From Pampinifervens diazotrophicum (GTDB lineage Bacteria; Aquificota; Aquificia; Aquificales; Aquificaceae), in the NCBI RefSeq assembly GCF_033971325.1, contig NZ_CP117180.1:1390472-1422471 (forward strand): a DNA stretch of 32,000 nt. The letters run 5' to 3'. The position numbers and the translations under genes are program-made. Below are positions 7,469 through 31,927 of this stretch, piece by piece (positions within the stretch are counted from its first letter, which is position 1; every line of letters begins with the position of its first letter). Under the pieces are notes generated by a model that saw only the letters and a program-made list of their open reading frames with translations, was not told the origin of the DNA and made no database searches.

Positions 7469-7497
7469 TTGACAATTTTTTGTCATTAATATACAAT
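7469..7497 (+). promoter_or_regulatory. Near-consensus sigma70-type promoter (TTGACA-17 nt-TACAAT) for the regulator-modABC operon
   Basis: TTGACA at 7469-7474, a 17-nt spacer, TACAAT at 7492-7497. An inverted repeat TGACA-N6-TGTCA (7470-7485) overlaps the -35 and spacer, and a further TGTCA lies at 7502-7506. Confidence 0.6.
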
Positions 7498-7506
7498 ATA
7501 CTGTCA

Positions 7507-8493
7507 ATGAACAGGGTCAAAGAACTGCGTCAAAGTCTTGGCTTGTCTCAGGAGGAGCTATCCAAGATAACAAACATTCCAAGGACTACCATAAGTGCCA
7601 TAGAGTCTGGTAAGGCTACACCTTCTGTAGACTATGCTCTAAGGCTTGCCAAGGCTTTAAGATGCACTGTAGAGGAGCTTTTTGGAGAGGAAGAGTTTGT
7701 TCCCTTTTTGGGCTTTAAGGAAGGGCTTTTTGTTAGCTATCAAGTAGGTGAGAGGAGAGTTCTCTTTCCAATAAACCTGTCAGAGGCGGAAGACTGCCCA
7801 GAGGGCTATTTCAAAGAGGGCAAAGTGGAGTGGTTCAACAGACAAACTCTACCCACATACACCTTTGCGGGTTGCGACCCTTCCTTTAAACTCCTCTCAA
7901 AAGCCCTCAGAGAAGAGGGAATAAGGCTTTTAGTTATAAACCTTCCAAGTATGAAGGCTCTTGAGCTTCTCAAAGATGGTTTTGTTCATATGGCGGGGGT
8001 CCACATGGGAAGTTTTGAAGAGAACATAAGGCTGGCAAGAAGTTTTCTTGGCAAGAGATATAAGTCTGTAAAGCTCTTCTCTTGGGAAGAAGGTATAGCG
8101 GTTAGAGAAAAGTATTCTCTTCAGGAGCTAAAGGGCAAACTTTGGCTTGCAAGAGAGGAAGGAAGCGGTGCAAGGAAGGTCTTTGAAGAGTTAAGAAAGG
8201 ACATGGCAATAGAGAACTTCAGAGTTGTCTCTGGAGGTCATGAAAAGATAGCCTTTAGCCTAATGGAAGGCTTTGGTGATGCGGGAATTACCACAAAAGC
8301 CTATGCCCTTGAGTATGGACTTAGTTTCTTGGGTGTAAAGTGGGAAGACTATTGCCTTTGCTATAGAGAGGATTTAGAAGAGGACAGAAACTTTCTTAGA
8401 GTTGTTGACTTTCTCAAAAGCAAAAGGCATACACGCTTACTTTCTTACCTACCGGGTTATGAAAAAAAATCCCTTGAGGAGGTTTTACTATGA
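7507..8493 (+). CDS. XRE-family HTH transcriptional regulator fused to a periplasmic-binding-protein-like (PBP_like) sensor domain; probable molybdate/tungstate-responsive regulator
   Basis: N-terminal HTH: MNRVKELRQSLGLSQEELSKITNIPRTTISAIESGKATPSVDYALRLAKAL. The C-terminal ~230 aa resembles the PBP-like domain commonly fused to HTH next to mod genes (SMKALELLKDGFVHMAGVHM). ATGA overlap with modA. I prefer the ATG at 7507 over the TTG at 7480, which lies inside the predicted promoter. Confidence 0.7.
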   Translation: MNRVKELRQSLGLSQEELSKITNIPRTTISAIESGKATPSVDYALRLAKALRCTVEELFGEEEFVPFLGFKEGLFVSYQVGERRVLFPINLSEAEDCPEGYFKEGKVEWFNRQTLPTYTFAGCDPSFKLLSKALREEGIRLLVINLPSMKALELLKDGFVHMAGVHMGSFEENIRLARSFLGKRYKSVKLFSWEEGIAVREKYSLQELKGKLWLAREEGSGARKVFEELRKDMAIENFRVVSGGHEKIAFSLMEGFGDAGITTKAYALEYGLSFLGVKWEDYCLCYREDLEEDRNFLRVVDFLKSKRHTRLLSYLPGYEKKSLEEVLL

Positions 8494-9248
8494 GGACACT
8501 GCTTTTCTTACTTCTTGGGCTTTTTAGCCTTGCCCATGCGGAGCTCATAAGGGTCTTTGCAGCCTCAGACCTGCAGTTTGCCCTAAGGGAAATTGCAAGC
8601 CTTTACATGAAAAAGTATCCAGAGGACAAGGTGGAGCTTGTACTTGGCTCCTCTGGAAAGGGTTACGCACAGGTCAGAGCTGGTGCACCCTTTCACATCT
8701 ACTTTTCTGCCAATATGAAGTATGTGGAAGAGCTCTACAAAGAAGGACATATAATAACGAAGCCAAAACCCTACGCCATTGGTAGGATAGTGGTTTGGAC
8801 CAGAAAGGACTCTCCTCTTGACCCCTCTAAGTTTCCAGAAGTGCTACTTGACCCAAAAGTCAGAAGGATAGCCATAGCCAACTGGGAGCACGCACCCTAC
8901 GGACAGGCAGCAAAGGAAGCTCTTGAGGCTTACGGTGTATTTGATAGGGTAAGGAACAAGTTTGTGCTTGGAGAAAACATATCTCAAACCGCCAGCTTTG
9001 TATACTCAGGCGCGGCGGACATTGGTATAATAGCACTTTCTTTGGCACTGGCTCCCGAACTGCAGGCAAAAGGTAAATACTGGCTAATTCCAGAAGATAA
9101 GCACGAAAGGCTTGAACAGGGCTACGGCATTACAAAAGAGGGAGGCAAGGTTAAAAACGCAAGGAGATTCTACGACTTTATAGGCTCTCCAGAGGCAAGA
9201 AGAATATTCGTCAAATACGGCTTTGTCCTACCAGGTGAAGAGAGATGA
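8490..9248 (+). CDS. modA: Molybdate ABC transporter substrate-binding protein ModA
   Basis: Signal peptide MRTLLFLLLGLFSLAHA. ModA-like core: IRVFAASDLQFAL, LVLGSSGKGYAQVRAGAPFHIYFSAN, IANWEHAPYGQAAKEAL. Followed by modB and modC. Confidence 0.85.
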   Translation: MRTLLFLLLGLFSLAHAELIRVFAASDLQFALREIASLYMKKYPEDKVELVLGSSGKGYAQVRAGAPFHIYFSANMKYVEELYKEGHIITKPKPYAIGRIVVWTRKDSPLDPSKFPEVLLDPKVRRIAIANWEHAPYGQAAKEALEAYGVFDRVRNKFVLGENISQTASFVYSGAADIGIIALSLALAPELQAKGKYWLIPEDKHERLEQGYGITKEGGKVKNARRFYDFIGSPEARRIFVKYGFVLPGEER

Positions 9249-9916
9249 TGGCGGATATAAACCCAGTTCCCATATGGCTTACGGTAAAACTTTCCATATG
9301 GACCACCATATTACTACTTATAATAGGCGTTCCACTCTCCTACTACCTTGCTTACACAAAAAGCAAGCTGGGGCTTGTTATAGAAGCTCTGGCTACCCTT
9401 CCTCTTGTCCTGCCACCAACAGTTTTGGGCTTTTACCTTCTTCTGCTTTTGAGTAAAAACGGCATTATAGGCTCTGTATGGTATAGGCTGTTTGACTACC
9501 AGCTTGTATTCCACTTTGAGGGTATAGTTATAGCCTCGGTCATATATAGCCTGCCTATGATGGTGCATCCACTTACCTCTGGTTTTAGAAGCGTGCCAAG
9601 AAATATCATAGAAGCCAGCTGGACTCTTGGAAAGTCAAAGATTGAAACCCTCTTTAGAGTGATACTTCCCAACATGAAGGCTTCTGTGCTTACTGGCATA
9701 GTGTTATCCTTTGCCCACACCATAGGAGAGTTTGGCGTGGTTTTGATGGTAGGTGGAAACATAGAGGGACAAACCCGTGTGGTATCCATAGCCATATACG
9801 ATGCGGTGGAAGCCATAGACTACAAGACCGCACACGTTTATGCAGGTCTTCTTTTCGTAGCTTCCTTTATAAGCCTTGCCATGCTCTATGCCATTAACAG
9901 GAGGTGGAGCCTGTGA
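9245..9916 (+). CDS. modB: Molybdate ABC transporter permease ModB
   Basis: 223 aa with 5-6 TM helices. EAA-type loop IIEASWTLGKSKIETLFRVILPN; ModB-typical HTIGEFGVVLMVGGNI. ATGA overlap with modA. Confidence 0.88.
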   Translation: MMADINPVPIWLTVKLSIWTTILLLIIGVPLSYYLAYTKSKLGLVIEALATLPLVLPPTVLGFYLLLLLSKNGIIGSVWYRLFDYQLVFHFEGIVIASVIYSLPMMVHPLTSGFRSVPRNIIEASWTLGKSKIETLFRVILPNMKASVLTGIVLSFAHTIGEFGVVLMVGGNIEGQTRVVSIAIYDAVEAIDYKTAHVYAGLLFVASFISLAMLYAINRRWSL

Positions 9917-10689
9917 TAAGAGCAAGGGTAAAAAAGCTCCTGCATGGCTTTGATGGAGATTTTTGGCTTGACGTAGAGCTTGAAGTAAAAGGCACGGAAT
10001 TTCTCGTTATTCTTGGACAGTCTGGTAGTGGAAAGACAACCCTTTTGAGATGTATAGCAGGGCTTGAAACACCAGAAGAGGGTTATATAGAAGTAGATGG
10101 AGAGGTTTGGTTTGACTCAAAGAGAAGGATAAACCTGCCACCTCAAAGGAGGAACGTGGGTTTTGTCTTTCAGGACTATGCCCTTTTTCCCAACATGACG
10201 GTGCTTGAAAATGTTATGTATGGAATGAGAAAAAAGGACAAAGACAGAGCCATAGAACTTCTCAGGATGGCTGGCTTGGAGGGTCTAAAGGACAAAAAAC
10301 CTGACAAACTCTCGGGAGGGCAAAAACAAAGGGTAGCCCTTTTGAGAGCCCTTGCAAAAGAGCCAAAGGTTTTACTGCTTGATGAACCTCTTTCTGCCCT
10401 TGACCCAGACCTAAGGCTTGAACTTCAAAAAGAGCTAAGGAACTTCCAAAAAAATGCCTCAATACCCGCTTTAATGGTTAGCCATGACAAGGAAGAAGCC
10501 CTAAGACTTGCGGACAGGGTAATAAGAATACACAAAGGAAAGATAGTGGAAGAGGGTGAGCCTCAAAGGATATTGGCGGATGCTCAGGCAACTCTTGTAA
10601 GCAAAAGGGAAAACCACAGAGAGGTCATACTTACCCTTAAACTTGAGGGTAAACTTGTGGAGATGAGAATAGACAAGGAAAGCCTTTAA
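9904..10689 (+). CDS. modC: Molybdate ABC transporter ATP-binding protein ModC (short C-terminal domain)
   Basis: Walker A GQSGSGKTT, Q-loop, signature LSGGQKQRVAL, Walker B LLLDEPLSALD, H-loop. An alternative GTG start at 9913 would give a GTGA overlap with modB. Confidence 0.85.
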   Translation: MEPVIRARVKKLLHGFDGDFWLDVELEVKGTEFLVILGQSGSGKTTLLRCIAGLETPEEGYIEVDGEVWFDSKRRINLPPQRRNVGFVFQDYALFPNMTVLENVMYGMRKKDKDRAIELLRMAGLEGLKDKKPDKLSGGQKQRVALLRALAKEPKVLLLDEPLSALDPDLRLELQKELRNFQKNASIPALMVSHDKEEALRLADRVIRIHKGKIVEEGEPQRILADAQATLVSKRENHREVILTLKLEGKLVEMRIDKESL

Positions 10690-14520: not shown

Positions 14521-14934
14521 TTAATCCTCCAATATATAATCTATAACCTTTTGCAAGTCCTTTAGACCTTCCACCCTCAAACCTTCAACATCAAGCTCTC
14601 CAAGCACAACCTTTTTTACACCCTTTAAAGACTTCCATCCTTCCAAAAGAACCACATCAAAGTTTGAGAAGTATTCTTCTACCACCTTTAAAGGGTTATC
14701 TTCTCTCCTTTCCCATAGAGTTAGTCTATCTGGAGACAAAAGCCCTACTTTGTCCGCCACTTTGAAAACCCTGTTTGTGTCGCTTCCTTCCTTATCGGTT
14801 ATGCCATGAGCTTTTGGGTCATGCTTGAGGTATCCAACCTTTAAACCCTTTGCCTTAAGCTGGGGTATGAGTGCTTCTATAAGCGTGGTTTTTCCCGAGT
14901 TATGGTATCCTACTATGCTCACTATCTTTGGCAC
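14521..14934 (-). CDS. mobB: Molybdopterin-guanine dinucleotide biosynthesis adapter protein MobB
   Basis: 137 aa. P-loop VSIVGYHNSGKTTLIEALIPQLKAKGLKVGYLKH and the downstream DxxGKDS-like DKEGSDTNR are typical of MobB. Confidence 0.85.
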   Translation of the reverse strand: MPKIVSIVGYHNSGKTTLIEALIPQLKAKGLKVGYLKHDPKAHGITDKEGSDTNRVFKVADKVGLLSPDRLTLWERREDNPLKVVEEYFSNFDVVLLEGWKSLKGVKKVVLGELDVEGLRVEGLKDLQKVIDYILED

Positions 14935-18709: not shown

Positions 18710-19230
18710 TACTTCTTTGGCAGACATTCTATCTTTTCCCTAACAATTACACCTCTTACTATATCCACTATCTCTTCCGCTCTTTTTAATCTCTTCAGCT
18801 CCTCTGGACGGTCAGACTTTATTTTAACAACCCAGCTCTCGTAAGGTCTACTTACTATGAGGGAAGGCTCCCTCTCTAACATCTTGTTAGACTCTACTAT
18901 CCTTCCACTTAGGGGGCTTGGAAAGGTGGAGACCCTTTTTCCAAACTCAACTACCGCAAGGTTTGAATCAAACTCCACCACCGTATTAACAGGCTTTATC
19001 CTTATGGCATAAAGTGGATAAATGAGAGAGGAAAGCACCTGCATGAAACCCACAGAGTAAACCCCTGAGCCTTCATCCTTTACCCATTGGAAAAGCATTC
19101 TATCTTCATCTACCCTGTATAGCCTGTCCGCCTTTATGATGCAACCTTGAACCTCAATATCCATAACCCTTACCTTGCCTAAGATAGGTATAGAAAGCAG
19201 AAAACTAAGGAGAATTCTCCTGCTTATCAT
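18709..19230 (-). CDS. Glycine-cleavage-H-like (lipoyl/biotinyl-barrel) family protein with hydrophobic N-terminus
   Basis: The core parallels GcvH: DRMLFQWVKDEGSGVYSVGFMQ (compare HEW-v...g..tVGIT) and VVEFGKRVSTFPSPLSGRIVESNKMLEREPSLIVSRPYESWVVKIK (compare ESVKa..di.sPvSGeV.evN..L...P.l.N..PY..GW). The N-terminal MISRRILLSFLLSIPILG is signal/TM-like; an alternative start at Met23 exists. ATGA overlap with fdhE. Confidence 0.6.
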   Translation of the reverse strand: MISRRILLSFLLSIPILGKVRVMDIEVQGCIIKADRLYRVDEDRMLFQWVKDEGSGVYSVGFMQVLSSLIYPLYAIRIKPVNTVVEFDSNLAVVEFGKRVSTFPSPLSGRIVESNKMLEREPSLIVSRPYESWVVKIKSDRPEELKRLKRAEEIVDIVRGVIVREKIECLPKK

Positions 19231-19994
19231 AAACCAAAGATATTCCTCTCAAACCTTATAAAACCTCTTTCCTTCGCCCATAGGTCAAGGACAAGTGTGG
19301 CTATATCATCCACCACTGGCACCGCAAGACCATCAAGTCGCATATCCACAATTTTAATGTAATGACCGCACTTATGACAATACTGTATCTGAACAGCTCT
19401 GTTTTCCTCGTTGTAGTAGTAATCGATAGAATTATCTTCTTCGTTTCCACAGTTTACACACCTGTTTCTGTTGTATAGCCAATCAGTTCCACATAAAACG
19501 CAAAGGAGAAACCTACCACCTTCCACATCTTCCTTGTCCGCTATGTAGGATATGTGAGGTCTAAAGCCACAGACGGGACATTTTGTCTTAAACCAGTTCT
19601 CCTTATCAATATCCATACTCTCCGCCATACGCTCGTAAAAGGGACCAAGGAAGGTAAGAAATAAAAACCTGTCTACGTCCTCTGCCTTCTTCTCCTTTAG
19701 AAACCTATCTATCATACCACCCACTCTATCCCTCTCCATCTGCCTTAATTCCCTTGCCCTTTCAGAGATTTGAATTGTTCCCTTTTCTCTGCATAATTCA
19801 AGTAGTTTGTAAAACCATTTCATACCCTTTCGCCAGTTGGGTTCTTTGCCTTCAAGAGCTTCGTATACCTCTCTCTGGTATTCAAGAATATGTGAGTAAA
19901 AATCAAGAAGTTCAGAAGCCTCTGGATATTTTGATTTTAAAACCCTTAACCTCTCAAGGGCGTATTCTTTCTCTCTCAGTTTAAATATGTTCAT
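19227..19994 (-). CDS. fdhE: Formate dehydrogenase accessory protein FdhE
   Basis: 255 aa with the four FdhE-typical CxxC pairs: CPVCG, CVLCGTDW, CVNCG, CHKCGHYIK. Located downstream of fdnGHI. Confidence 0.85.
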   Translation of the reverse strand: MNIFKLREKEYALERLRVLKSKYPEASELLDFYSHILEYQREVYEALEGKEPNWRKGMKWFYKLLELCREKGTIQISERARELRQMERDRVGGMIDRFLKEKKAEDVDRFLFLTFLGPFYERMAESMDIDKENWFKTKCPVCGFRPHISYIADKEDVEGGRFLLCVLCGTDWLYNRNRCVNCGNEEDNSIDYYYNEENRAVQIQYCHKCGHYIKIVDMRLDGLAVPVVDDIATLVLDLWAKERGFIRFERNIFGL

Positions 19995-20071: not shown

Positions 20072-20713
20072 TTATTGCCTCCTCATAATTTGTCTGAACC
20101 ACTTTGGATGATGGTGCATAGCCCAGAGTGCGGAAACCTTGCCTGTTATGATGCCAGAAAGTGAACCGGGAACACCCACAGTGCCCATGTAAACATGCAC
20201 TATAAAGCCTGCACCCACCAGTATAAAGGCAAGACTATGAAGGAGTATGGAAAGCCTTACTATTTTTGCAGAAAAGCTCTCGGGAAACCACATAACTATG
20301 CCCGTTATAAGAAACAGAGCACCACCTAAGAAGACCATCCAGCCGAAGATCTTCTGACCTGCGTTATACTTGCCTACCTCAGGAAGTTTTTCTTCTTCTC
20401 CCTTTATGTAATGCTTTACATTGGAAAGCCACCTAATGTCATCGCTGTCAAGAACAAAGTCCTTTGCCCATCTTAGAAACATAAGGAAAACACCAACAGC
20501 AAACACTACACCCGCCCACTTGTGAAGCCATGCGGAGAACTCTTTTCCTCCAAGAAGAGGAAGTAGCCAGGCAAACTTTGGAGAATACATGCCAAGCCCT
20601 GAGAGGAAAAGATATACAAAAGGTATGGCTGTAAGCCAGTGCACAAACCTGTCAAAGGCTGAAAACCTTTCCACCTCAATCTCTTCAAGGTTCTTAACTT
20701 CTTCCATGATCAT
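20072..20713 (-). CDS. fdnI: Formate dehydrogenase gamma subunit (cytochrome b556, FdnI/FdoI family)
   Basis: 213 aa with 4 TM helices. FDRFVHWLTA (heme-ligand His), LHKWAG, and HSLAFILVGAGFIVHVYMG histidines are typical of FdnI. ATGA overlap with fdnH. Confidence 0.88.
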   Translation of the reverse strand: MIMEEVKNLEEIEVERFSAFDRFVHWLTAIPFVYLFLSGLGMYSPKFAWLLPLLGGKEFSAWLHKWAGVVFAVGVFLMFLRWAKDFVLDSDDIRWLSNVKHYIKGEEEKLPEVGKYNAGQKIFGWMVFLGGALFLITGIVMWFPESFSAKIVRLSILLHSLAFILVGAGFIVHVYMGTVGVPGSLSGIITGKVSALWAMHHHPKWFRQIMRRQ

Positions 20714-21600
20714 TCCTCCTTCTTATGCTTCTTGCCTACCCTTATGGGTCCAAAGAGTATAAGCTGTAAGAAAGCACCAAGGAGCGTTCCCCAAAGCACT
20801 ACTGAGCCTATAAGTTTTAATGGACCCTTCCAAAGGCTTATCAAAGGTGATATGCTTGCCTCTTTTGGAAGCCCATACATTTCGGGTTTATCCCCGTGAG
20901 GCAGAAGGTAGATGTATCCAGTTCCACCTACACCTGGTGGGTCGTATATGGATGCCTTTTCAAAACCTCTCTTCTTAAGACCTTCAAGGAGCTTGTTAGC
21001 CCTTATAAGCATCTCTTCCTTTGTTCCAAAGTGCAAGGCGTTTGTGGGACAGGTTTTTACACACATGGGCTCAAGACCAGCGGAAACCCTATCTATGCAG
21101 AAGTTACACTTCCATGGTTTGTTGTTTGCGTCGTACCTTGGCACATCAAAGGGACAGCCAGATAGACAGAACTTACAACCTATACACTTAGAGTGGTCAA
21201 AGTCCACAACGCCGTTTGCATACTGAACTATAGCACCGGGAGATGGGCACGCCTTAAGACAGCCGGGGTCCGCACAGTGCATGCACTGATACTTGGTTAT
21301 CGCCCAAACAAGCCCATTTGGAGTTTCCTCCTCTTGAAAACGCATATACATAAAGAGGTTAGGAGCAAGACCAGGACCAGACTGATAACCAAAGAATGCC
21401 TGCTGTCCCACGTTGAGAGGTGGCTTTAGGTCATGCCACTGAGAGCACCCTGCTTCACAGGCTTTGCAACCTATACAGCTGGATATATCTACAAGTATTG
21501 CAAGCTGGTCTGCTTGCTTTATACTTTGGTCAGGGGATTTGGAGGCGGAGACCCGCCTCAACCCCAATCCTACCGTTCCTTCTGTGGTTACTGTAGCCAT
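20710..21600 (-). CDS. fdnH: Formate dehydrogenase beta subunit (4x[4Fe-4S] ferredoxin-type, FdnH/FdoH) with C-terminal membrane anchor
   Basis: Cys clusters CIGCKACEAGC, CMHCADPGCLKACP, CIGCKFCLSGCP, CNFCIDR...CVKTCP. A C-terminal hydrophobic helix is present: LIGSVVLWGTLLGAFLQLILFG. Confidence 0.92.
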   Translation of the reverse strand: MATVTTEGTVGLGLRRVSASKSPDQSIKQADQLAILVDISSCIGCKACEAGCSQWHDLKPPLNVGQQAFFGYQSGPGLAPNLFMYMRFQEEETPNGLVWAITKYQCMHCADPGCLKACPSPGAIVQYANGVVDFDHSKCIGCKFCLSGCPFDVPRYDANNKPWKCNFCIDRVSAGLEPMCVKTCPTNALHFGTKEEMLIRANKLLEGLKKRGFEKASIYDPPGVGGTGYIYLLPHGDKPEMYGLPKEASISPLISLWKGPLKLIGSVVLWGTLLGAFLQLILFGPIRVGKKHKKEE

Positions 21601-21612
21601 CTTTTCACCTCC

Positions 21613-24600
21613 TTATGCTTTTACCTTTTCAACCCTGCAAAGGAAACCCTTGAACTCTGGAGTTTGAGAGTTAGGGTCCCACACAAAGGGTGTTATCATG
21701 TTGGCGAGGGCACCTTTAACTACACCCTCATTACCCCAGTGTATAGGGATACCTACCGTATATACCTTTTTACCATTTATCGTGAGAGGCTTTATCCTCT
21801 TAGTGGGAAGGACATAACCCTCCGCAGAACCTCTTGCGGTAACAACCCTTACCTTGTCACCCTCTTTTACACCCAACTCCTTTGCAAGCTCCTCTGGTAT
21901 CTCAATAAACATGTTGGGCACAAGCACAGATGTGCCATAGATATGTTTTGTCCAATAGTGGAAATGTTCAACTACCCTATAGGTGGTCGCCACATATGGA
22001 AATTCATCTGGTTTTCCAAGCAGGTCAAGGTCTGACTTGTATATCTTAACCACTGGGTTGTGAGGTGTCTTTGGATGTAGGATGTTCTCTACGGGAGACT
22101 CAAAGGGTTCGTAGTGTTCTGGGAAGGGTCCATCCACAAGAGGTGCACAGAATAGCCTACCTCTTCCTTCTGGAAGCATTATGAAGGGTCCATAATCAGG
22201 TGTTAAGTCTGGCCTTATATCTGGCACGTCGTAGCCAACCCATCTGCCTTCTGCCTCGTTCCACCATAGATATTTCTTCTTTTCGCTCCAAGGCTTACCG
22301 CTTGGGTCTGCGGACGCCCTGTTGTAGAGTATCCTTCTGTTGGCTGGCCAGCTATAGCCGTAGCCCGGATAGACTCCCAAACCTGATGGGTCGGAGAGGT
22401 CTGTAGACTTCGCCCTGTTGCCCGATTGAGGGAAAACACCAGAGTATAGCCACATGCCACAGGCTGTTGTCCCATCATCCCTTAGCACACCAAAACCGGG
22501 TAGCCTTTCACCCTTTTTAACCACCACATTACCCTTGTCATCTGTAAGGTCCGCAAGGGCGTAGCCGTTCATTTCTCTCAGGACCTCTTCAGCAGTTGGA
22601 TAGTAGGGGTTTTGGAAGTTCCATGTAAGGTTGAGTATGGGGTCTGGGAACTTACCACCCTCCTTCTTGTAAAGGTTTTTGAGCCTCATCCACAACTGAC
22701 CCGCTATCCACAGCTCATCCTTTGCCTCGCCTGGTGGGTCTACCGCTTTATACTTCCACTTTATAACCCTTCCACTGTTTGTGAATGAACCTTCCTTCTC
22801 CGCAAAGAGTGTAGAAGGCAGCAGAAATACTTCAGTTTGTATCTTTGATGGGTCATCCACATACTTCCAAAAGCCCGCCATCTCCGTTTCAAAGACATCA
22901 ATAACCACCATCCACTTTAGCTTTCCAAGTCCTTCCGCTATCTTCTTGACGTTTGGATTGCTTGCAAGTATGTTCATACCCACGGAAACAAAGCCTTCCA
23001 TCTTACCCCTATACATCCTGTCCAGTATCTCGTCCATAGATATAACCTTTTCCAACTTAGGAAGATAGTGGTAGGCAAATTCGTTCTCTGGAGTTGCAGC
23101 ATTCCCGAACCATGCTTTAAGAAGGCTTACATAAAATTTGCCGTAGTTAGACCAAAAGTTCATAGAAGTGTCTATAGCCTTAGGAGTGTTTGCCTGTATA
23201 TGGTCTTTGAGAGATTGCTGGTCTGCCCTCGGGGGTCTAAGGTAGCCCGGCAAAAACCTTCCTTCTCCTGCAAGGTCAGTCATGCCTTGAACGTTTGCAT
23301 GACCTCTAAGTGCATTTATTGCACCACCCGGCACTCCTATATTTCCGAGTAGCAGTTGAAGTATAGCCATAGAGCCTATGAGCTGTGTTCCTGTGGAATG
23401 ATGTGTCCATCCAAGAGCATAGAGGTGTGTCATAGCCTTATCTGGAGCGGATGTTTCCGATATGAGTTTTGCCACCTCAAGGAACTTATCTTTTGGAATG
23501 CCTGTCAGCTTTTCCACTACTTCTGGCGTATACCTTGAGTAGAACTCCTTCATAAGCTGGAATACACATCTTGGATGTTGAAGTGTCATGTCCTTCTTTG
23601 CCATACCCTTCTCGTCAAGTTCGTATCCCCAGAGGGACTGGTCGTATTTTCTCTTTTCTGGGTCGTAGCCAGAGAATAGACCTGTTTGTGGGTCAAAGCT
23701 GTAAGTATCCTTTACGATATATGCAGCGTTTGTAAAGTGCTTTATATACTCCTCGTTGTATTTCCCGTTCTGAAGCACATAGTTTATAAGACCACCCATA
23801 AAGGCTATATCTGAGCCAGCTCTTATCTGCAGGAAGATATCAGAGACAGCAGCGGTTCTGTTGAACCTTGGGTCTACACAGATTATCTTAGCTCCCCTTT
23901 CTTGACGGGCTTTTATCGCCCACTTAAAACCGCAGGGATGGTTCTCCGCAGGGTTTCCTCCCATAACGAGTATTAGGTCTGCGTTCTTTATGTCATTCCA
24001 TCCATTGGTCATCGCACCTCTTCCATATCTTGGGGCCAAACTGGCCACCGTTGGTGCGTGTCATATTCGCGCCTGGGTCTCTCGTGCAACAAGTCCGAGG
24101 GCAACCCCCATCTTTACCCACAGATAGCCCTCTTCGTTGGCTATGGTGCTACCCTCAACCCAAGCTATGCTTTCACATCTGTTAACAGTTCTACCTTGCT
24201 CATCCTGTTCTATAAAAGTCCTATCCCTCGTATCCTTTATCAACCTTGCAATCTTATCAAGAGCCTCTTCCCAGCTTATTTCCTGCCATTCCTTTGCACC
24301 AGCGGGTCTATACATAGGTTTTTTGAGCCTTTTAGGTGCGTTTATAAAGTCTTTAAGGGTTGCACCCTTTGGACAAAGGGTTCCTCTATTGACAGGGTCA
24401 TCTGGATTGCCCTCCACATGTATGACCCTTGGCTTTACGTTCATAGAACCATCGGTAAGGCTGTAGATTATTACACCACAAGAAACAGAGCAATAGGGAC
24501 ATATGCTTTTCACAGCCTTTGCGTTGGAAATTTTAAGGTCTCTAACCCTCGCCATGGCAGGCTTTAGGTCAAAACCAAGCCCACCAGTGAGGGTAGCACC

Positions 24601-24648
24601 TGCAGAAACGCCCGCAACTTTTAGAAAACTTCGCCTTGTTAGCTCCAT
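21613..24648 (-). CDS. fdnG: Formate dehydrogenase alpha subunit (Mo/W-bis-MGD, selenocysteine-containing, Tat-exported); 1011 aa with Sec196 encoded by in-frame TGA at 24063-24061
   Basis: The two track ORFs (24648-24061 and 24048-21613) are in the same frame, separated only by TGA plus 4 codons. The junction reads ...ARETQARI-U-HAPTVASLAPRYGRGAMTNGW, matching the conserved FdnG/FdhF active-site context (...V-U-HGPTVASLAPTFGRGAMTNHW in E. coli, from memory). Tat signal MELTRRSFLKVAG; N-terminal FeS Cys motif CPYCSVSCG...C. A SECIS hairpin lies downstream and selC is in the same operon region. Confidence 0.93.
24032..24049 (-). promoter_or_regulatory. Bacterial SECIS hairpin directing Sec insertion at the fdnG UGA
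   Basis: mRNA: UGA CAC GCA CCA ACG GUG GCC AGU UUG GCC CC. It folds as GG-U(bulge)-GGCCA-[GUU]-UGGCC-CC. Counting the U of UGA as 1, the bulged U is nt 17 and the loop G,U are nt 23,24. This is the same geometry as the E. coli fdhF minimal SECIS (GG-U-UGCA-[GGUC]-UGCA-CC). Confidence 0.8.
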
Positions 24649-27371: not shown

Positions 27372-27621
27372 GAAGGAGTTTAATATAAAAAACAGGGCGG
27401 ACGCTAAGCTCTTTGTGGACAGTTTTTTTGAAGAGATAGTTAACCTTGTTCTTGAAAAGGGTAGGCTTGAGCTCAGAGGCTTTGGCGTTTTTAAGATAAG
27501 GAGGCTGAGCGGAAGGTTTATAAAGAACCCCAAGACTGGCATAGAGATGTATGTGGAAGAAAGGTATAGCATAGGCTTTAAACCCTCAAGTCTTTTCAAT
27601 AAAGAGCATGATAAGGTTTGA
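27340..27621 (+). CDS. HU/IHF-family nucleoid-associated DNA-binding protein
   Basis: MKKTDLIESLRKEF...AKLFVDSFFEEIVNLVLEKGRLELRGFGVFKIRRLSGRFIKNPKTGIEMYVEERYSIGFKPS matches the HU/IHF fold signature (RGFG.F....R..R.GRNP.TGE...I......FKP). I prefer the start at the second Met of the track ORF. Confidence 0.85.
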   Translation: MKKTDLIESLRKEFNIKNRADAKLFVDSFFEEIVNLVLEKGRLELRGFGVFKIRRLSGRFIKNPKTGIEMYVEERYSIGFKPSSLFNKEHDKV

Positions 27622-28648
27622 TGTTTTAATAGTTGGAGGAGGTCCAGCAGGCTCTTCTTGTGCCTATAGGCTTGCAAAGGCTGGTAAAAGGGTTTTGGTG
27701 GTTGACATAAAAAGAAGTATAGGAAAGCCTGTGCAATGTGCGGAGTTTGTCCCTATTCAGCTATACCATCAGTTTAAGGAGTTCTTTCCAGAAGAAGCTA
27801 TAGCTCAGAGGGTAAAGAATATGGTTCATTTTACACCTTGGGGAGAGGTGGTAAGTATGTGGTCGGAGGGCTTTGTATTAAACAGAGAGGTCTTTGACGC
27901 TCAGATAGCCAAGCTGGCACAGGAGCAGGGTGCGGTATATATGCTTAGAACACAATTTTTGGGCTTTGAAGATGGTTTTGCATGGCTTGAAGAGATTGAC
28001 ACGAGAGAAAAGTTTCCAGTAAAGGCGGACTTTGTAGTGGGTGCGGACGGACCAAGGTCAAAGGTGGCAAGGCTCACTGGTGAAAAAACCCAGACATTTC
28101 TCACCACTGCACAAAGCACATTGGAGCTGACAAAGGAGCTTGAAGACCTTCTTATATACTTTAGAGACTACATACCTGGAGGATACGGCTGGGTCTTTCC
28201 AAAGGGAAGGCTCGCCAACGTGGGAGTGGGGGTTGACCCAGATTATGGAGTTAATGTGATGGAAAGTCTCAAAAGGTTCGTAGAAGAGGTTGTTGCAGAG
28301 GGTGTAGTAGAGAAGCAAGTAATAAAAAGAACGGGCGGATGGATACCTGCGGATGGGCTACTGCCTTTGGTAAGAAAGAGGGTTCTGCTTGTGGGGGATG
28401 CGGGTGGCTTTTGTCATCCCATAACTGGCGGTGGAATAGCCAACGCGGTCATATCGGGGGATATGGCAGGTAAAGCATTATGTGAGGATTCTCCAGAAGA
28501 GTTTGAAGAGGAAGCTCAAGAGGTCTTTGGGAGCACCCTCTGGAGGGCATCAGAAAAGAGGAAAAAACACATGAAAAGATGGGACAACCTAAAGGAAATA
28601 ATCCCAAAAACATGGATAGCCTTTGAAGAATATTGGCGTATAATTTAA
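27608..28648 (+). CDS. FAD-dependent oxidoreductase, geranylgeranyl reductase family
   Basis: N-terminal Rossmann FDVLIVGGGPAGSSCAYRLAKAGKRVLVVD. GGR-family blocks KPVQCAEFVP, VGADGPRS, YGWVFPKG, LVGDAGGFCHPITGGGI. Confidence 0.8.
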   Translation: MIRFDVLIVGGGPAGSSCAYRLAKAGKRVLVVDIKRSIGKPVQCAEFVPIQLYHQFKEFFPEEAIAQRVKNMVHFTPWGEVVSMWSEGFVLNREVFDAQIAKLAQEQGAVYMLRTQFLGFEDGFAWLEEIDTREKFPVKADFVVGADGPRSKVARLTGEKTQTFLTTAQSTLELTKELEDLLIYFRDYIPGGYGWVFPKGRLANVGVGVDPDYGVNVMESLKRFVEEVVAEGVVEKQVIKRTGGWIPADGLLPLVRKRVLLVGDAGGFCHPITGGGIANAVISGDMAGKALCEDSPEEFEEEAQEVFGSTLWRASEKRKKHMKRWDNLKEIIPKTWIAFEEYWRII

Positions 28649-28664
28649 GTTAGGAGGTGGTTAA

Positions 28665-29513
28665 ATGGACTTTTTAGGAAGAGACCAATCACCACTTACT
28701 TTTGAAGAATGGGAGCAATTAGAAAGTGCGGTTATTGATGTGGCTAAAAAGACCCTTGTATGCAGAAGGTTTATGCCAATTATAGGACCTATAGGTGTCG
28801 GGCATCAGGTAATAGCCTACGATGTTTACCTTGGGGTAGAACCGGGAGTATGTGAGGTGAAACCAGGAGAAGAGAGCGAAGCCTGCGAGCCTGTGAGAAC
28901 AGGAAGAAGAAAATACATAACCCTTCCCACCATATTCAAGCCTTTCTCCATAACTTGGAGAGACATTGAATACTTCAGACAATTTAACTTGCCAATTGAT
29001 ACCTCTCAGGCATCTGCTGCAGCCTTTGCCACTGCAGTGGCGGAAGATACCCTCATAATTCACGGCAATCCAAAAATGGAAATAGAGGGTTTTCTTACCG
29101 TGGAAGGAAGGCAGAGCATGTCCATGAGCGATTGGGATGTGCTTGGCAACGCCTTTAACGATGCAGCTCTGGGTATATCAAAGCTCTCGGAGAAGGGATT
29201 TTATGGACCATACTATCTTCTACTGAACCCAAGGGACTACTTTAAGCTCAATAGGGTCTATCACAACACGGGACTTCTTGAGATTGAGCAGATTAAAAAG
29301 CTGGTTTCTGATGTATACCACACACCTATAGTCCCAGAAGGAAAGGCTATTCTCCTGTCCACAGGACCACAAAATATGGACCTTGTCCTTGGGCTTGACT
29401 TTAGCCTTGCCTATGTGGAATCTACCAACATGGTGCACCACTTTAGAGTTATGGAAATAGTCGCACCACGCATAAAGAGACCTGGTGCCATAATGGTAAT
29501 AGGCGAAAAGTGA
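28665..29513 (+). CDS. Encapsulin nanocompartment shell protein (Family 1, HK97-fold, linocin M18-like)
   Basis: Full-length colinear similarity, from memory, to T. maritima encapsulin. [42 protein letters not shown] aligns with [57 protein letters not shown] aligns with [50 protein letters not shown] aligns with [31 protein letters not shown]. Strong SD TAGGAGGTGG 7 nt upstream. Confidence 0.9.
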   Translation: [282 protein letters not shown]

Positions 29514-31354
29514 AAGAGCGTTGGAAGGTAATAGAGAAGCTCCTTTCTGATGAGTATGACATAGAGGTTCAGGCAAGCTACGAGGGTTGGGGAGCTGGCT
29601 ATGACCCTAAGTTTCTACCTCTCACCGAAATGTGGGCAAAGGGGGAAATAGAGGATGTGCCAGAACCAGTAAAGCGACCCTCTGGCATTGCCTTCTATCT
29701 TCAGGAAGTCTCTAACAAACCAGAAGAGGAAGCCATAAATATCATAAGGCATGAGATAGAGTATCTTTTTAGCACTGACCTCTACCTTTGGAGGATTGGT
29801 CAAAGGGAATTCTATAAATTTGGCTTTACGCCTACGTCCTTTTTAGTGCTTTATGCGGTTTTGGAGTCTATAAAAACAGACGAAAGGCTTATAAAAAGCC
29901 ATCCAGATAGCTTGCAAACTGTAAAAAAGCATTACAAAAACATATTTAATAACTTAGAAACCTACTATCCACACCACCTTTTTGCTATTTCTCTTCTGGA
30001 AAACTGGCTTGGTGAAGGGAACTATCAAAAAGATACACAGAAATTCCTCCAAGAGTATCTAAATGCAAAAAGCAGGGATGCCTATGACATAATTATGGAG
30101 GACCTCTTTGGAAGATACATGAGTCATATAGAAAAGGCACAAGACATAAACTATGTTGACCTGCTTTTGGAAGAGGCAAGAGGAAAGACCAGAGTTGATG
30201 CCCACAGAGGCAGGATAATGACAGACCTTCTAAAGAAACTACCAGAACATCTTCAAGAGATAATAGTGCAAAACAAGGACAAAAGGGCGGTTGATATATC
30301 AGAAGCGGACAGAAAAGAAATACTCAAAAGTCTAAAGGCAGTCCCAGACTGGATGCGAGACTACCTAAAGCAGATGTCTTACATAAACTTGATAGAGAGG
30401 GATGTGGAGTTTATAAGACACTTTTTGCCAAAAACCCTTGAGGTTGATATAGAACACAGAGGCTTTTTGAGCTTTATTATAAAGGGATGGGAAGAGCAGT
30501 CTTCTTCCTCTTCTCAGTCTGGCTTTGGAAGAAGCAAAAGGGAAAAAACAGAAGAGGACAGACTGTATGAGAAGGCTTACGGTCTTGGAAAGGAAGACTT
30601 TATGGTTTACAAAAGAATGCTCTCTGATATTTTGCCACACATAGACGCTTTAAAGAGAAAACTGGTCAAACTCATGCCACAAGAAGAAGAAGGTTGGACC
30701 GGAAAGCACTTCTATGGTAGAAGGATTGATACTAAAAGCCTAAGCGTGGAAGCTCCTCTTGGAAGAGGAAAAATATACATGAGAAGGCATATACCAGTAA
30801 GAAAAGAGTTAGCCTTCAAGCTCCTCATAGATATTTCCACTTCTATGAAAAGAGAGGACAAAATACAAAACGCCATAAAGGCTCTTTTGCTTTTTTCAGA
30901 GGTTATAGAAAGCCTTAAAATGTCCTTTTCCATAGATGTGTTTTCAGACAGGGTTTTTAGACTAAAGGCGTTTTCAGAGGACTACAAAAGTGTAAAGTGG
31001 AAGATAGTAGAGCTTTTTAACCTGCTGGGCGGTGGGACAAACCTTGAAAAAGCCCTTATATATTCTTATGAAGACCTTCAGACCTTCTGCTTGAAAAATC
31101 ACATTAGGGGATGTATTGTAGTTTTTTCTGATGGAGAGCCCACAAGAGGTCTAAAAGGTCAAGAGCTAAAAAGCCTTATAGCACAGATAAAGGCAAGAAT
31201 ACCAATCATAGGCATAGGAGTTGGCACAGAAAGAAATTACACAGACTATTACTTTGAGAAAAGTGCTATAAGGATAAGGAGCATAAGCGAGCTTCCTACT
31301 GCCTTTACAAGGATAATAGAAAATCAGGCAAGGAGGCTTCTATCCTTTCAATAG
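29510..31354 (+). CDS. Large VWA (von Willebrand factor A) domain protein with intact MIDAS motif and an uncharacterised ~330-aa N-terminal region; translationally coupled to the encapsulin gene
   Basis: GTG start overlapping the encapsulin TGA (GTGA). The C-terminal ~170 aa is VWA: DISTS (DxSxS, nt 30830-30844), GGGTNLEKAL, VVFSDGEPT, IIGIGVG. A Ser-rich linker EEQSSSSSQSGFGRSKREKTEED separates it from a helical N-terminal region with no family I recognise. Confidence 0.8.
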   Translation: MKERWKVIEKLLSDEYDIEVQASYEGWGAGYDPKFLPLTEMWAKGEIEDVPEPVKRPSGIAFYLQEVSNKPEEEAINIIRHEIEYLFSTDLYLWRIGQREFYKFGFTPTSFLVLYAVLESIKTDERLIKSHPDSLQTVKKHYKNIFNNLETYYPHHLFAISLLENWLGEGNYQKDTQKFLQEYLNAKSRDAYDIIMEDLFGRYMSHIEKAQDINYVDLLLEEARGKTRVDAHRGRIMTDLLKKLPEHLQEIIVQNKDKRAVDISEADRKEILKSLKAVPDWMRDYLKQMSYINLIERDVEFIRHFLPKTLEVDIEHRGFLSFIIKGWEEQSSSSSQSGFGRSKREKTEEDRLYEKAYGLGKEDFMVYKRMLSDILPHIDALKRKLVKLMPQEEEGWTGKHFYGRRIDTKSLSVEAPLGRGKIYMRRHIPVRKELAFKLLIDISTSMKREDKIQNAIKALLLFSEVIESLKMSFSIDVFSDRVFRLKAFSEDYKSVKWKIVELFNLLGGGTNLEKALIYSYEDLQTFCLKNHIRGCIVVFSDGEPTRGLKGQELKSLIAQIKARIPIIGIGVGTERNYTDYYFEKSAIRIRSISELPTAFTRIIENQARRLLSFQ

Positions 31355-31667
31355 CCACCTTTATACCCTCTTCTGGCTTTTCTATCACAAAAAGGTAATC
31401 AGTAGCCCTTTCATGCTTTAATGCCTCTTGCAAAAACTCACGAGCCTGTGTGTCTTGACCAAGAGCAAAGTTAAGCAATGCCAAAAGCAGATATTTCTCT
31501 TGGCAGTCCTTTGCAAGCATTAGCCACTTGGTTGCCTCAAGATATTTAAACTCTACCACATACCTTATGCCTATATAGAGAGGTTCACGAAAGGCTATAA
31601 AGTCCTCTTTGCTAAGTTTTTTACCTTCCTTGCTGTAGACCACTACTCTAAACCTGACTCTCATCAC
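31305..31667 (-). CDS. Hypothetical protein (120 aa), possibly a single TPR-like helical hairpin
   Basis: ORF with coding-like composition. EATKWLMLAKDCQEKYLLLALLNFALGQDTQAREFLQEALK looks TPR-like. Its 3' end overlaps the convergent VWA gene by 50 nt. Confidence 0.4.
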   Translation of the reverse strand: MMRVRFRVVVYSKEGKKLSKEDFIAFREPLYIGIRYVVEFKYLEATKWLMLAKDCQEKYLLLALLNFALGQDTQAREFLQEALKHERATDYLFVIEKPEEGIKVAIERIEASLPDFLLSL

Positions 31668-31714: not shown

Positions 31715-31927
31715 ATGAAAGTTTACAACAAGGAAGATTTATCATACAAGAATATAGTGGTGCTTGAAGATGGCAAGCCTCCCGAAAAGATTGAAGTTAC
31801 AGAGGATATTATAAAAATCTACTCCTCAAGAAAGGTCTTTGAAATACCCGCAAAATCCCTGAGAGGAAAAGCTATTCTTGATAGGCTAAACTATCAGGGC
31901 GAGCTTACACAAGAGATATATATTTAG
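31715..31927 (+). CDS. Hypothetical small protein (70 aa)
   Basis: ORF only; I recognise no family. The composition resembles neighbouring genes. Confidence 0.35.
   Translation: MKVYNKEDLSYKNIVVLEDGKPPEKIEVTEDIIKIYSSRKVFEIPAKSLRGKAILDRLNYQGELTQEIYI

Follow-up and report, generated by a model that had tools for sequence, protein, structure and literature searches.

We analyzed a 32,000-nucleotide stretch of the Pampinifervens diazotrophicum genome (assembly GCF_033971325.1, contig NZ_CP117180.1, positions 1,390,472 to 1,422,471 of the forward strand; hereafter the window) that contains a gene for an encapsulin shell protein, preceded by a gene of the geranylgeranyl reductase (GGR) family and followed by a gene for a von Willebrand factor A (VWA) domain protein. 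We consider it very probable that this shell is the Aquificaceae orthologue of the Family 1, EncA-like iron-storage encapsulins, that its cargo is a two-domain ferritin-like protein (DFLP) with an LTVG(D/S)L tail encoded at a distant site, and that the GGR and VWA genes are its neighbors by inherited gene order. By homology, the DFLP tail would dock during assembly in the pocket between the N-terminal helix and the E-loop of the shell protein, and the enclosed DFLP would oxidize Fe(II), the iron being stored inside the shell. The GGR and VWA genes would be co-directional members of a long, compact housekeeping array (DEAD helicase-KdsC-LptC-LptA-IHF-GGR-shell-VWA) that one lineage has inherited; co-transcription with the shell gene is probable, and their products would be neither cargo nor required partners.

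The initial annotation of the window, made without database searches, had called the shell product a Family 1 encapsulin. Hidden Markov model searches confirm this call, with 264.8 bits against the NCBIfam model NF041155 for family 1 encapsulin nanocompartment shell proteins (cut-off 100) and 229.8 bits against Pfam PF04454. At E<1e-3 the product has 37 matches among solved Family 1 shells, headed by Myxococcus xanthus EncA (231 bits, residues 2-278 aligned), and its further best solved relatives are large-shell encapsulins whose entries contain 3-4 chains each, among them 6NJ8. We assign it on these matches to Family 1, with a predicted HK97-type encapsulin fold. Shells across the Aquificaceae are 57-97% identical to it. 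The nearest relatives come from hot-spring Aquificaceae metagenome-assembled genomes (MAGs), with 96-97% identity in the shell and 98% in the VWA protein, and further relatives include "Candidatus Pampinifervens" and Hydrogenobacter sp. Uz 6-8. An exact look-up of the shell protein returned no record. The features of the locus are as follows.

28665 to 29513, + strand: Family 1 encapsulin shell protein of 282 amino acids, assigned to the large-shell EncA-like subclass (NF041155, PF04454, solved relatives).
28652 to 28659, + strand: strong Shine-Dalgarno sequence AGGAGGTG, read from the sequence and ending 5 nt ahead of the shell ATG.
28851 to 28886, + strand: Cys63 and Cys74 of the shell (codons 28851-28853 and 28884-28886), in the segment that the shell alignment matches to the EncA E-loop (GVCEV...ACEP).
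27608 to 28648, + strand: GGR-family FAD-dependent oxidoreductase of 346 amino acids (TIGR02032, PF22578), read here as a neighbor and not as cargo.
29510 to 30499, + strand: N-terminal all-alpha domain of the VWA protein, residues 1-330, with an uncharacterized fold (AlphaFold2 model).
30809 to 31354, + strand: C-terminal VWA domain (PF13519, PF00092) with an intact metal ion-dependent adhesion site (MIDAS; D441, S443, S445, T510, D541).
31305 to 31667, - strand: convergent open reading frame of 120 amino acids (orf120), a conserved hypothetical with one weak TPR-like motif, overlapping the 3' end of the VWA gene by 50 nt.

The reading frames, their junctions and the 614-residue length of the VWA protein are all as initially annotated. 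A 16-nt spacer containing the Shine-Dalgarno sequence separates the GGR stop from the shell start, and the TGA stop of the shell gene is overlapped by the GTG start of the VWA gene (GTGA, AAGTGAAAG). The E-loop cysteine pair occurs in 68 of 75 Aquificaceae-type shells compared with none of 45 more distant Family 1 shells, and could form a stabilizing disulfide or a metal site.

In Family 1 systems a cargo gene typically lies directly beside the shell gene, usually upstream. This feature is absent here, the place being taken by the GGR flavoprotein and the VWA protein. Scanning the window over its full length in all six reading frames with a relaxed form of the targeting motif ([LFIM][TS][VI]G[DSNGE][LI] for [LF][TS][VI]G[DSNG][LI]) returned 0 matches, tblastn found no DFLP copy, and the window holds no ferritin-like, DyP, hemerythrin or IMEF gene. 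None of the shell's neighbors ends in a GSL-type tail; the earlier observation that canonical cargo and tail are missing beside the shell holds for the whole window. The rest of the window is taken up by housekeeping genes (RodA, MinCDE, SurA, molybdate uptake, PhoU, histidine kinase, ThrRS) or by a formate dehydrogenase operon. Adjacency of shell and cargo is typical of Family 1 and not obligatory, distal cargos being documented.

The cargo candidate emerged from comparison across genomes. One genome per GTDB species was scanned with the shell alignment, which gave 80 loci, ~61 of them in Aquificota, and their neighboring genes were tabulated and clustered. In outgroup loci from Firmicutes and unclassified bacterial MAGs (shell identity 41-48%), a ferritin-like cargo gene lies directly upstream of the shell. 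It encodes either a 123-aa ferritin-like protein with the tail ...KSTVGSLLEK or a 336-aa two-domain ferritin-like protein with the tail ...GKLTIGSLLGKEQGE; the tails of the shell-adjacent cargos read ...STVGSLLEK or ...LTIGSLLGKEQGE. A full-length homologue of this adjacent cargo (35% identity, E 1e-55) is encoded in Thermocrinis minervae, ~6 kb from the VWA locus and unrelated to the VWA protein; this two-domain protein has 296 aa and the tail ...LNRFTIGGLREDD. A homology search with DFLP returned more than 120 clusters, with proteins of 290-300 aa in the Aquificaceae. Homologues were found in Aquifex aeolicus, A. pyrophilus, Thermocrinis albus, T. jamiesonii, Hydrogenobacter, Hydrogenivirga and many Aquificaceae MAGs, including those of the window's own clade. 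The motif [LF][TS][VI]G[DSNG][LI] is present within the last 25 residues of 109 of the 117 full-length DFLP homologues and of 0 of 221 control proteins. LTVGDL is its most frequent form, and most of the other eight proteins carry near-variants. Judged by its residues, this tail is the canonical Family 1 targeting peptide.

Two genomes link the window's type of shell locus to DFLP directly. Contig JAEDZT010003162.1 (1,623,316 bp) has the window's gene order, DEAD-KdsC-LptC-LptA-IHF-GGR-shell-VWA-orf120, with the shell at ~683.5 kb, and carries the DFLP gene P0260 (tail ...RLTVGDLRKKDA) at ~1,381 kb, ~0.7 Mb from the shell. The MAG RFFP01 has its shell locus (L026) and its DFLP locus (L093) on separate contigs. 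No assembly was found that is shared by the DFLP P0232 (GCA_046295955.1) and the 98%-identical VWA protein P0001 (seven other MAGs). Among the options raised by the initial annotation, an orphan shell with its cargo encoded elsewhere is thus the one that these data favor, DFLP with an LTVG(D/S)L tail occurring across the Aquificaceae and in a genome with an identical operon. Published work agrees with this assignment. TmDFLP of T. minervae, whose tail is FTIGGL, is a ferroxidase that forms homodimers and binds heme, and in AlphaFold models this tail docks to the T. minervae shell, whose gene lies elsewhere in the genome (bioRxiv 10.1101/2025.09.13.676036). 'Bfr' cargos with two four-helix bundles and targeting peptides have been listed for Aquificae (Andreas & Giessen 2021, PMC8346489).

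The surroundings of the DFLP gene have features of their own. In all four DFLP loci inspected (L010:1-1206, L091:6001-7447, L093:286-1732 and L097:3001-4447), a SIS-domain gene comes next with an 8-nt overlap. A glycogen-phosphorylase-type gene lies upstream in three of the four, and in L097 a hemerythrin gene is found two genes downstream.

Gene order around the shell varies between lineages. Among the ~61 Aquificota shell loci no neighbor is conserved across clades, and the order GGR-shell-VWA is seen only together with the entire housekeeping block, namely in the window's clade (clade A, ~22 loci with a shell identity of at least 81%) and in the divergent loci L064 and L071. Thermocrinis shells have a radical-SAM gene, a CDF transporter gene and TsaE upstream and TetR downstream; Hydrogenobacter shells have genes for a SorA-like enzyme, a cytochrome c and a GGR-like protein, again with TetR downstream; marine-clade shells are accompanied by an MBL-fold gene and CysK, and Aquifex shells by PNPOx, PriA and RluD. 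Shell and VWA genes are accordingly not adjacent in the Aquifex, marine, Thermocrinis and Hydrogenobacter lineages. H. thermophilus, Hydrogenivirga and T. minervae have VWA orthologues with 50-53% identity, each standing alone in a different, unrelated context, and the same holds for a 38%-identical orthologue in another MAG. The survey of orthologous neighborhoods suggested in the initial annotation shows the shell-VWA adjacency in clade A, L064 and L071 and not in most related lineages. Absence of the adjacency from related genomes and discovery of a standard cargo elsewhere had been named beforehand as evidence against a shell-VWA partnership, and both are largely what we observe.

The tight coupling of the two genes had also been taken as a sign that shell and VWA protein are produced together. 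Of the 30 junctions between co-directional genes in the window, about 10 are overlaps of 4 nt, unrelated gene pairs included, making this the commonest junction type. Such an overlap is the default junction here, and the GTGA overlap is therefore uninformative for the shell-VWA pair in particular. The A. aeolicus genome paper reportedly describes operons that mix functionally unrelated genes. A literature search for a link between encapsulins and von Willebrand/VWA proteins found nothing relevant, in agreement with the initial remark that the pairing is undescribed.

Several further genes recur near shell or VWA genes. A gene for an RluD-type pseudouridine synthase lies directly after the shell in Aquifex (L001) and after the VWA gene in L064 and L071, a pattern that would fit an ancestral shell-VWA-RluD order from which the VWA gene was lost or moved elsewhere. 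The A. aeolicus shell has, ~6 kb downstream, a homologue of the 70-aa reading frame at 31715-31927 of the window. In the Aquifex clade (L001:5487-5921) and in one Hydrogenobacter locus (L007:9599-10036) there are PNPOx-like (FMN-binding split-barrel) orthologues with 62% identity, at a distance of two genes from the shell in the former and from the VWA gene in the latter. We considered this protein as a link between shell and VWA protein and rejected it; neither the window nor any clade-A locus contains it, and it is treated as a synteny remnant. Further cargo candidates were likewise discarded. Upstream of the A. aeolicus shell, the candidate is a protein of 678 aa whose zinc-finger layout is PriA-like and which lacks a targeting tail; the small protein upstream of the Thermocrinis shell, considered as a ferritin-like cargo, has a P-loop (GDLGSGKT) typical of TsaE and no targeting tail; and in L023 and L028, where other genes take the GGR position ahead of the shell, these read as triose-phosphate-isomerase-like and flagellar hook-associated-like.

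The upstream neighbor belongs, by its profile matches, to the geranylgeranyl reductase family TIGR02032. Its product scores 216.7 bits against this model (cut-off 158.8) and 40.1 bits against PF22578 GGR_cat (cut-off 27), and falls far under the cut-off of every equivalog model. The N-terminus (VGGGPAGS) is an FAD-binding GxGxxG Rossmann motif and the protein ends in ...WIAFEEYWRII. Its closest solved relatives, 3OZ2 and 3ATQ, are archaeal digeranylgeranylglycerophospholipid reductases. Its most likely role, we presume, is to saturate a prenyl chain such as that of methionaquinone, which is known in partly saturated form from Hydrogenobacter. In L055 the true GGR orthologue (63% identity) is kept with IHF-LptA-LptC-KdsC, 4 kb from the shell. 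The Hydrogenobacter loci (L003:6881-7996, L029, L036, L038 and L061) contain a second GGR-family gene of 364-383 aa with a CxxC near the N-terminus, located 4 nt upstream of the shell and preceded by genes for a SorA-like molybdoenzyme and a small cytochrome c. Its product is 29-33% identical to the window protein and has a different tail; either paralogue replacement or rapid divergence may account for it.

The downstream neighbor (29510-31354, + strand) starts with GTG and encodes 614 aa, of which only the last ~180 residues (~aa 434-612) form the VWA domain. This domain scores 38.2 bits against PF13519 and 35.4 bits against PF00092, and the protein matches no NCBIfam model. The MIDAS residues D441-x-S443-x-S445, T510 and D541 are invariant in 27 homologues, and the product is assigned from this complete DxSxS...T...D pattern as a MIDAS-containing VWA domain protein. 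In a profile search of solved structures and in Foldseek, the last ~250-300 residues are closest to the MIDAS domain of Rea1/midasin and to the NorD VWA domain in NorQ-NorD complexes (6QT8, E 5e-10; NorQD, 9QHE). The Foldseek query was an AlphaFold2 model with pLDDT 82, which matched the Rea1 and NorD MIDAS domains with probability 1.00. This resemblance makes the protein most likely an adaptor for a MoxR-class AAA+ ATPase encoded elsewhere, although no AAA_5/MoxR-type gene occurs in the window or beside the VWA orthologues in L007, L009, L010 and L099. The sole nearby AAA+ gene, in relatives, is of the ComM/YifB type and lies downstream of the VWA gene on the opposite strand. Membership of a NorD/CbbO system is not established because no MoxR-class ATPase is adjacent in any locus examined.

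The VWA protein's N-terminal domain is modeled with high confidence (pLDDT 93.1, pTM 0.90) and has no match in the PDB by Foldseek (best E 0.19, TM about 0.15) and none in Pfam or NCBIfam. An exhaustive search of 1.84 billion proteins found only 30 representatives related to it. Distant relatives by sequence are likewise VWA proteins that carry no family name; among those checked, each with a Pfam match of any kind also has a C-terminal match to a VWA or CobT_C-like domain. The domain is highly conserved, with H232, E315 and H316 invariant and H81, E82 and H156 nearly invariant. The convergent orf120 is kept beside the VWA gene at 48-99% identity in clade A, L064 and L071 and does not accompany the VWA gene where that gene is away from the shell; its family matches are limited to sub-threshold TPR hits.

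Several observations weigh against our reading of a distally encoded cargo beside passively inherited neighbors. The closest evidence for shell and DFLP in the same genome comes from a relative with 81% shell identity, the window's own DNA spanning 32 kb only, and the loading of DFLP into an Aquificaceae shell is known from modeling. In EncA, Asp39 and Asp214 are both salt-bridge partners of the Arg of the targeting peptide (PMC11126975). The equivalent of Asp214 is conserved in the window shell as D216 and that of Asp39 is Pro38; one salt-bridge partner is not conserved, and conservation of the targeting-peptide pocket is only partly shown. Two clades have a GGR-family gene as the immediate upstream neighbor of the shell, although the proteins are only ~30% identical. 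The shell-VWA-orf120 unit keeps its 4-nt overlap over deep divergence (L064 and L071; VWA identity 45-46%) and survives replacement of the upstream genes (L023, L028), a persistence that could reflect selection and not inertia. In a neighbor-joining tree of the shells, computed without support values, L064 falls at the base of the Aquificaceae, and the shell-VWA arrangement may therefore be ancestral. The last two observations would fit an ancestral functional module of shell and VWA protein, perhaps with orf120, in which the NorD-like adaptor and a distant MoxR-type ATPase service the iron store of the encapsulin (for example its assembly, the gating of its pores, or the insertion and release of iron), the adjacency having been lost later in some lineages without loss of function. 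The kinship of the VWA domain to NorD and the Rea1 MIDAS would suit an iron compartment, NorQD, CoxDE, CobST and BchID being metal-insertion chaperones, and shell and VWA families both occur in many Aquificaceae genera. We nevertheless regard this explanation as unlikely. The adjacency is broken in the four lineages named above, and the VWA gene occupies four distinct, unrelated contexts; synteny is just as strong for the entire housekeeping block, so conservation is not specific to the shell-VWA pair; the overlap is of the default type; no MoxR gene accompanies any VWA locus examined; and the basal placement of L064 comes from a tree without support values. In addition, the complete chromosomes of A. 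aeolicus VF5, T. albus and H. thermophilus TK-6 apparently fall in shell clusters and in no VWA cluster, which suggests shells without VWA. We give an equally low probability to a working shell-VWA-orf120 module in which the VWA protein, perhaps with the flavoprotein as reductant, services the DFLP-loaded encapsulin by iron loading or release or by shell remodeling. The suggestion in the initial annotation of a MIDAS-mediated docking factor finds no support either, the adjacency being absent from most related lineages, the overlap being of the default type and neither neighbor carrying a targeting motif.

Even less probable, in our judgment, is that the VWA or GGR protein, or both, represent a new kind of cargo with a non-canonical targeting signal, another option raised initially. 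Both are the immediate co-directional neighbors of a shell gene whose canonical cargo is not adjacent, the GGR tail is conserved in clade A, a GGR-family gene recurs upstream of the shell in two clades, and there is a precedent in EncD, a flavin-binding ferric reductase that is an encapsulin cargo (PMC11126975). Against this, a canonical cargo with a canonical tail is present in the same genomes, and the targeting motif has 0 matches in 24 GGR homologues and 0 in 101 VWA homologues. The termini of the VWA protein are alike in shell-adjacent and non-adjacent orthologues, the L055 GGR orthologue stays with IHF-Lpt and not with the shell, the Hydrogenobacter GGR-like protein differs in sequence and tail, and the Aquifex, marine and Thermocrinis shells have neither neighbor. 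It is just as improbable that the shell is empty or vestigial in the window's lineage, a cargo-less orphan without a working partner. The lack of cargo in the 32-kb window would fit, but the shell is highly conserved (81-97% within the clade, with invariant residues across the Aquificaceae) and has a strong ribosome-binding site, and the DFLP targeting peptide is conserved in clade A (P0260), which argues for continued selection on loading. Our preferred reading remains a DFLP-loaded, EncA-like encapsulin with incidental neighbors. The basal position of L064, the persistence in L023 and L028 and the recurrent upstream GGR gene are read as inherited gene order, with a functional link retained at low probability. 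In this account the VWA protein would be a separate, Aquificaceae-wide protein of NorD/CbbO-like layout, for which structural resemblance suggests a role as ATPase adaptor.

Elsewhere in the window, the gene for the formate dehydrogenase alpha subunit (21613-24648, - strand) is split into two reading frames by an in-frame TGA at 24061-24063 (...QARI-U-HAPT...), likely a selenocysteine codon. The subunit begins with a twin-arginine translocation signal (MELTRRSFLK). Genes for an FdhB-like Fe-S subunit (20710-21600), a cytochrome b (20072-20713) and FdhE (19227-19994) follow it. The window also carries a ModE-like regulator, modABC for molybdate uptake, and MobB (7480-10689 and 14521-14934), which together with the formate dehydrogenase operon form a coherent Mo/W-cofactor neighborhood.

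An encapsulin with a two-domain ferritin-like ferroxidase as cargo, and the split genomic arrangement of the two, are already in the literature, to which the window adds one orthologue. The more general consequence is that in compact thermophile genomes cargo is not assignable by neighborhood alone, and a whole-genome scan for targeting peptides is needed. An action of the VWA protein on the shell would make it the first known accessory factor of an encapsulin that is not itself cargo; present evidence argues against this and leaves it a low probability. The confidently modeled N-terminal domain of the VWA protein, which lacks a structural relative, and the clade-specific cysteine pair in the shell E-loop are leads for structural work.

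Compared with known systems, the VWA protein shares the layout of the NorD, CbbO and Rea1-MIDAS adaptors, with ~600 aa and a family-specific N-terminal region ahead of a C-terminal MIDAS-VWA domain. It differs in its unmatched 330-aa N-terminal domain, and unlike NorD and CbbO it has no NorQ, CbbQ or MoxR gene adjacent in any locus examined.

For the shell, M. xanthus EncA is the closest solved protein. In M. xanthus the encC and encD cargo genes also lie away from the shell gene. EncB and EncC are single-domain proteins, whereas the Aquificaceae cargo is a fused two-domain ferritin-like protein, and the shells differ in the change from Asp39 to Pro38 and in the E-loop cysteine pair, which the Aquificaceae shells have and EncA does not. 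The Aquificaceae cargo resembles that of the 'Bfr'-type operons (PMC8346489) and CaDFLP of Caldanaerovirga in its pair of four-helix bundles and its targeting peptide at the C-terminus. Those operons, unlike the Aquificaceae loci, place the cargo gene directly upstream of the shell; the outgroup loci L077 and L078 are cargo-adjacent.

The nearest counterpart is the T. minervae encapsulin with TmDFLP. The flanks of the shell genes differ, the T. minervae VWA orthologue being located elsewhere and Thermocrinis shells being flanked by TsaE and TetR. The shells themselves are orthologous (76% identity between P0138 and the shell of the window), the TmDFLP family recurs across the Aquificaceae with a conserved (L/F)T(V/I)Gx(L) tail, and in T. 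minervae as on the clade-A contig JAEDZT010003162.1 the genes for cargo and shell lie apart.

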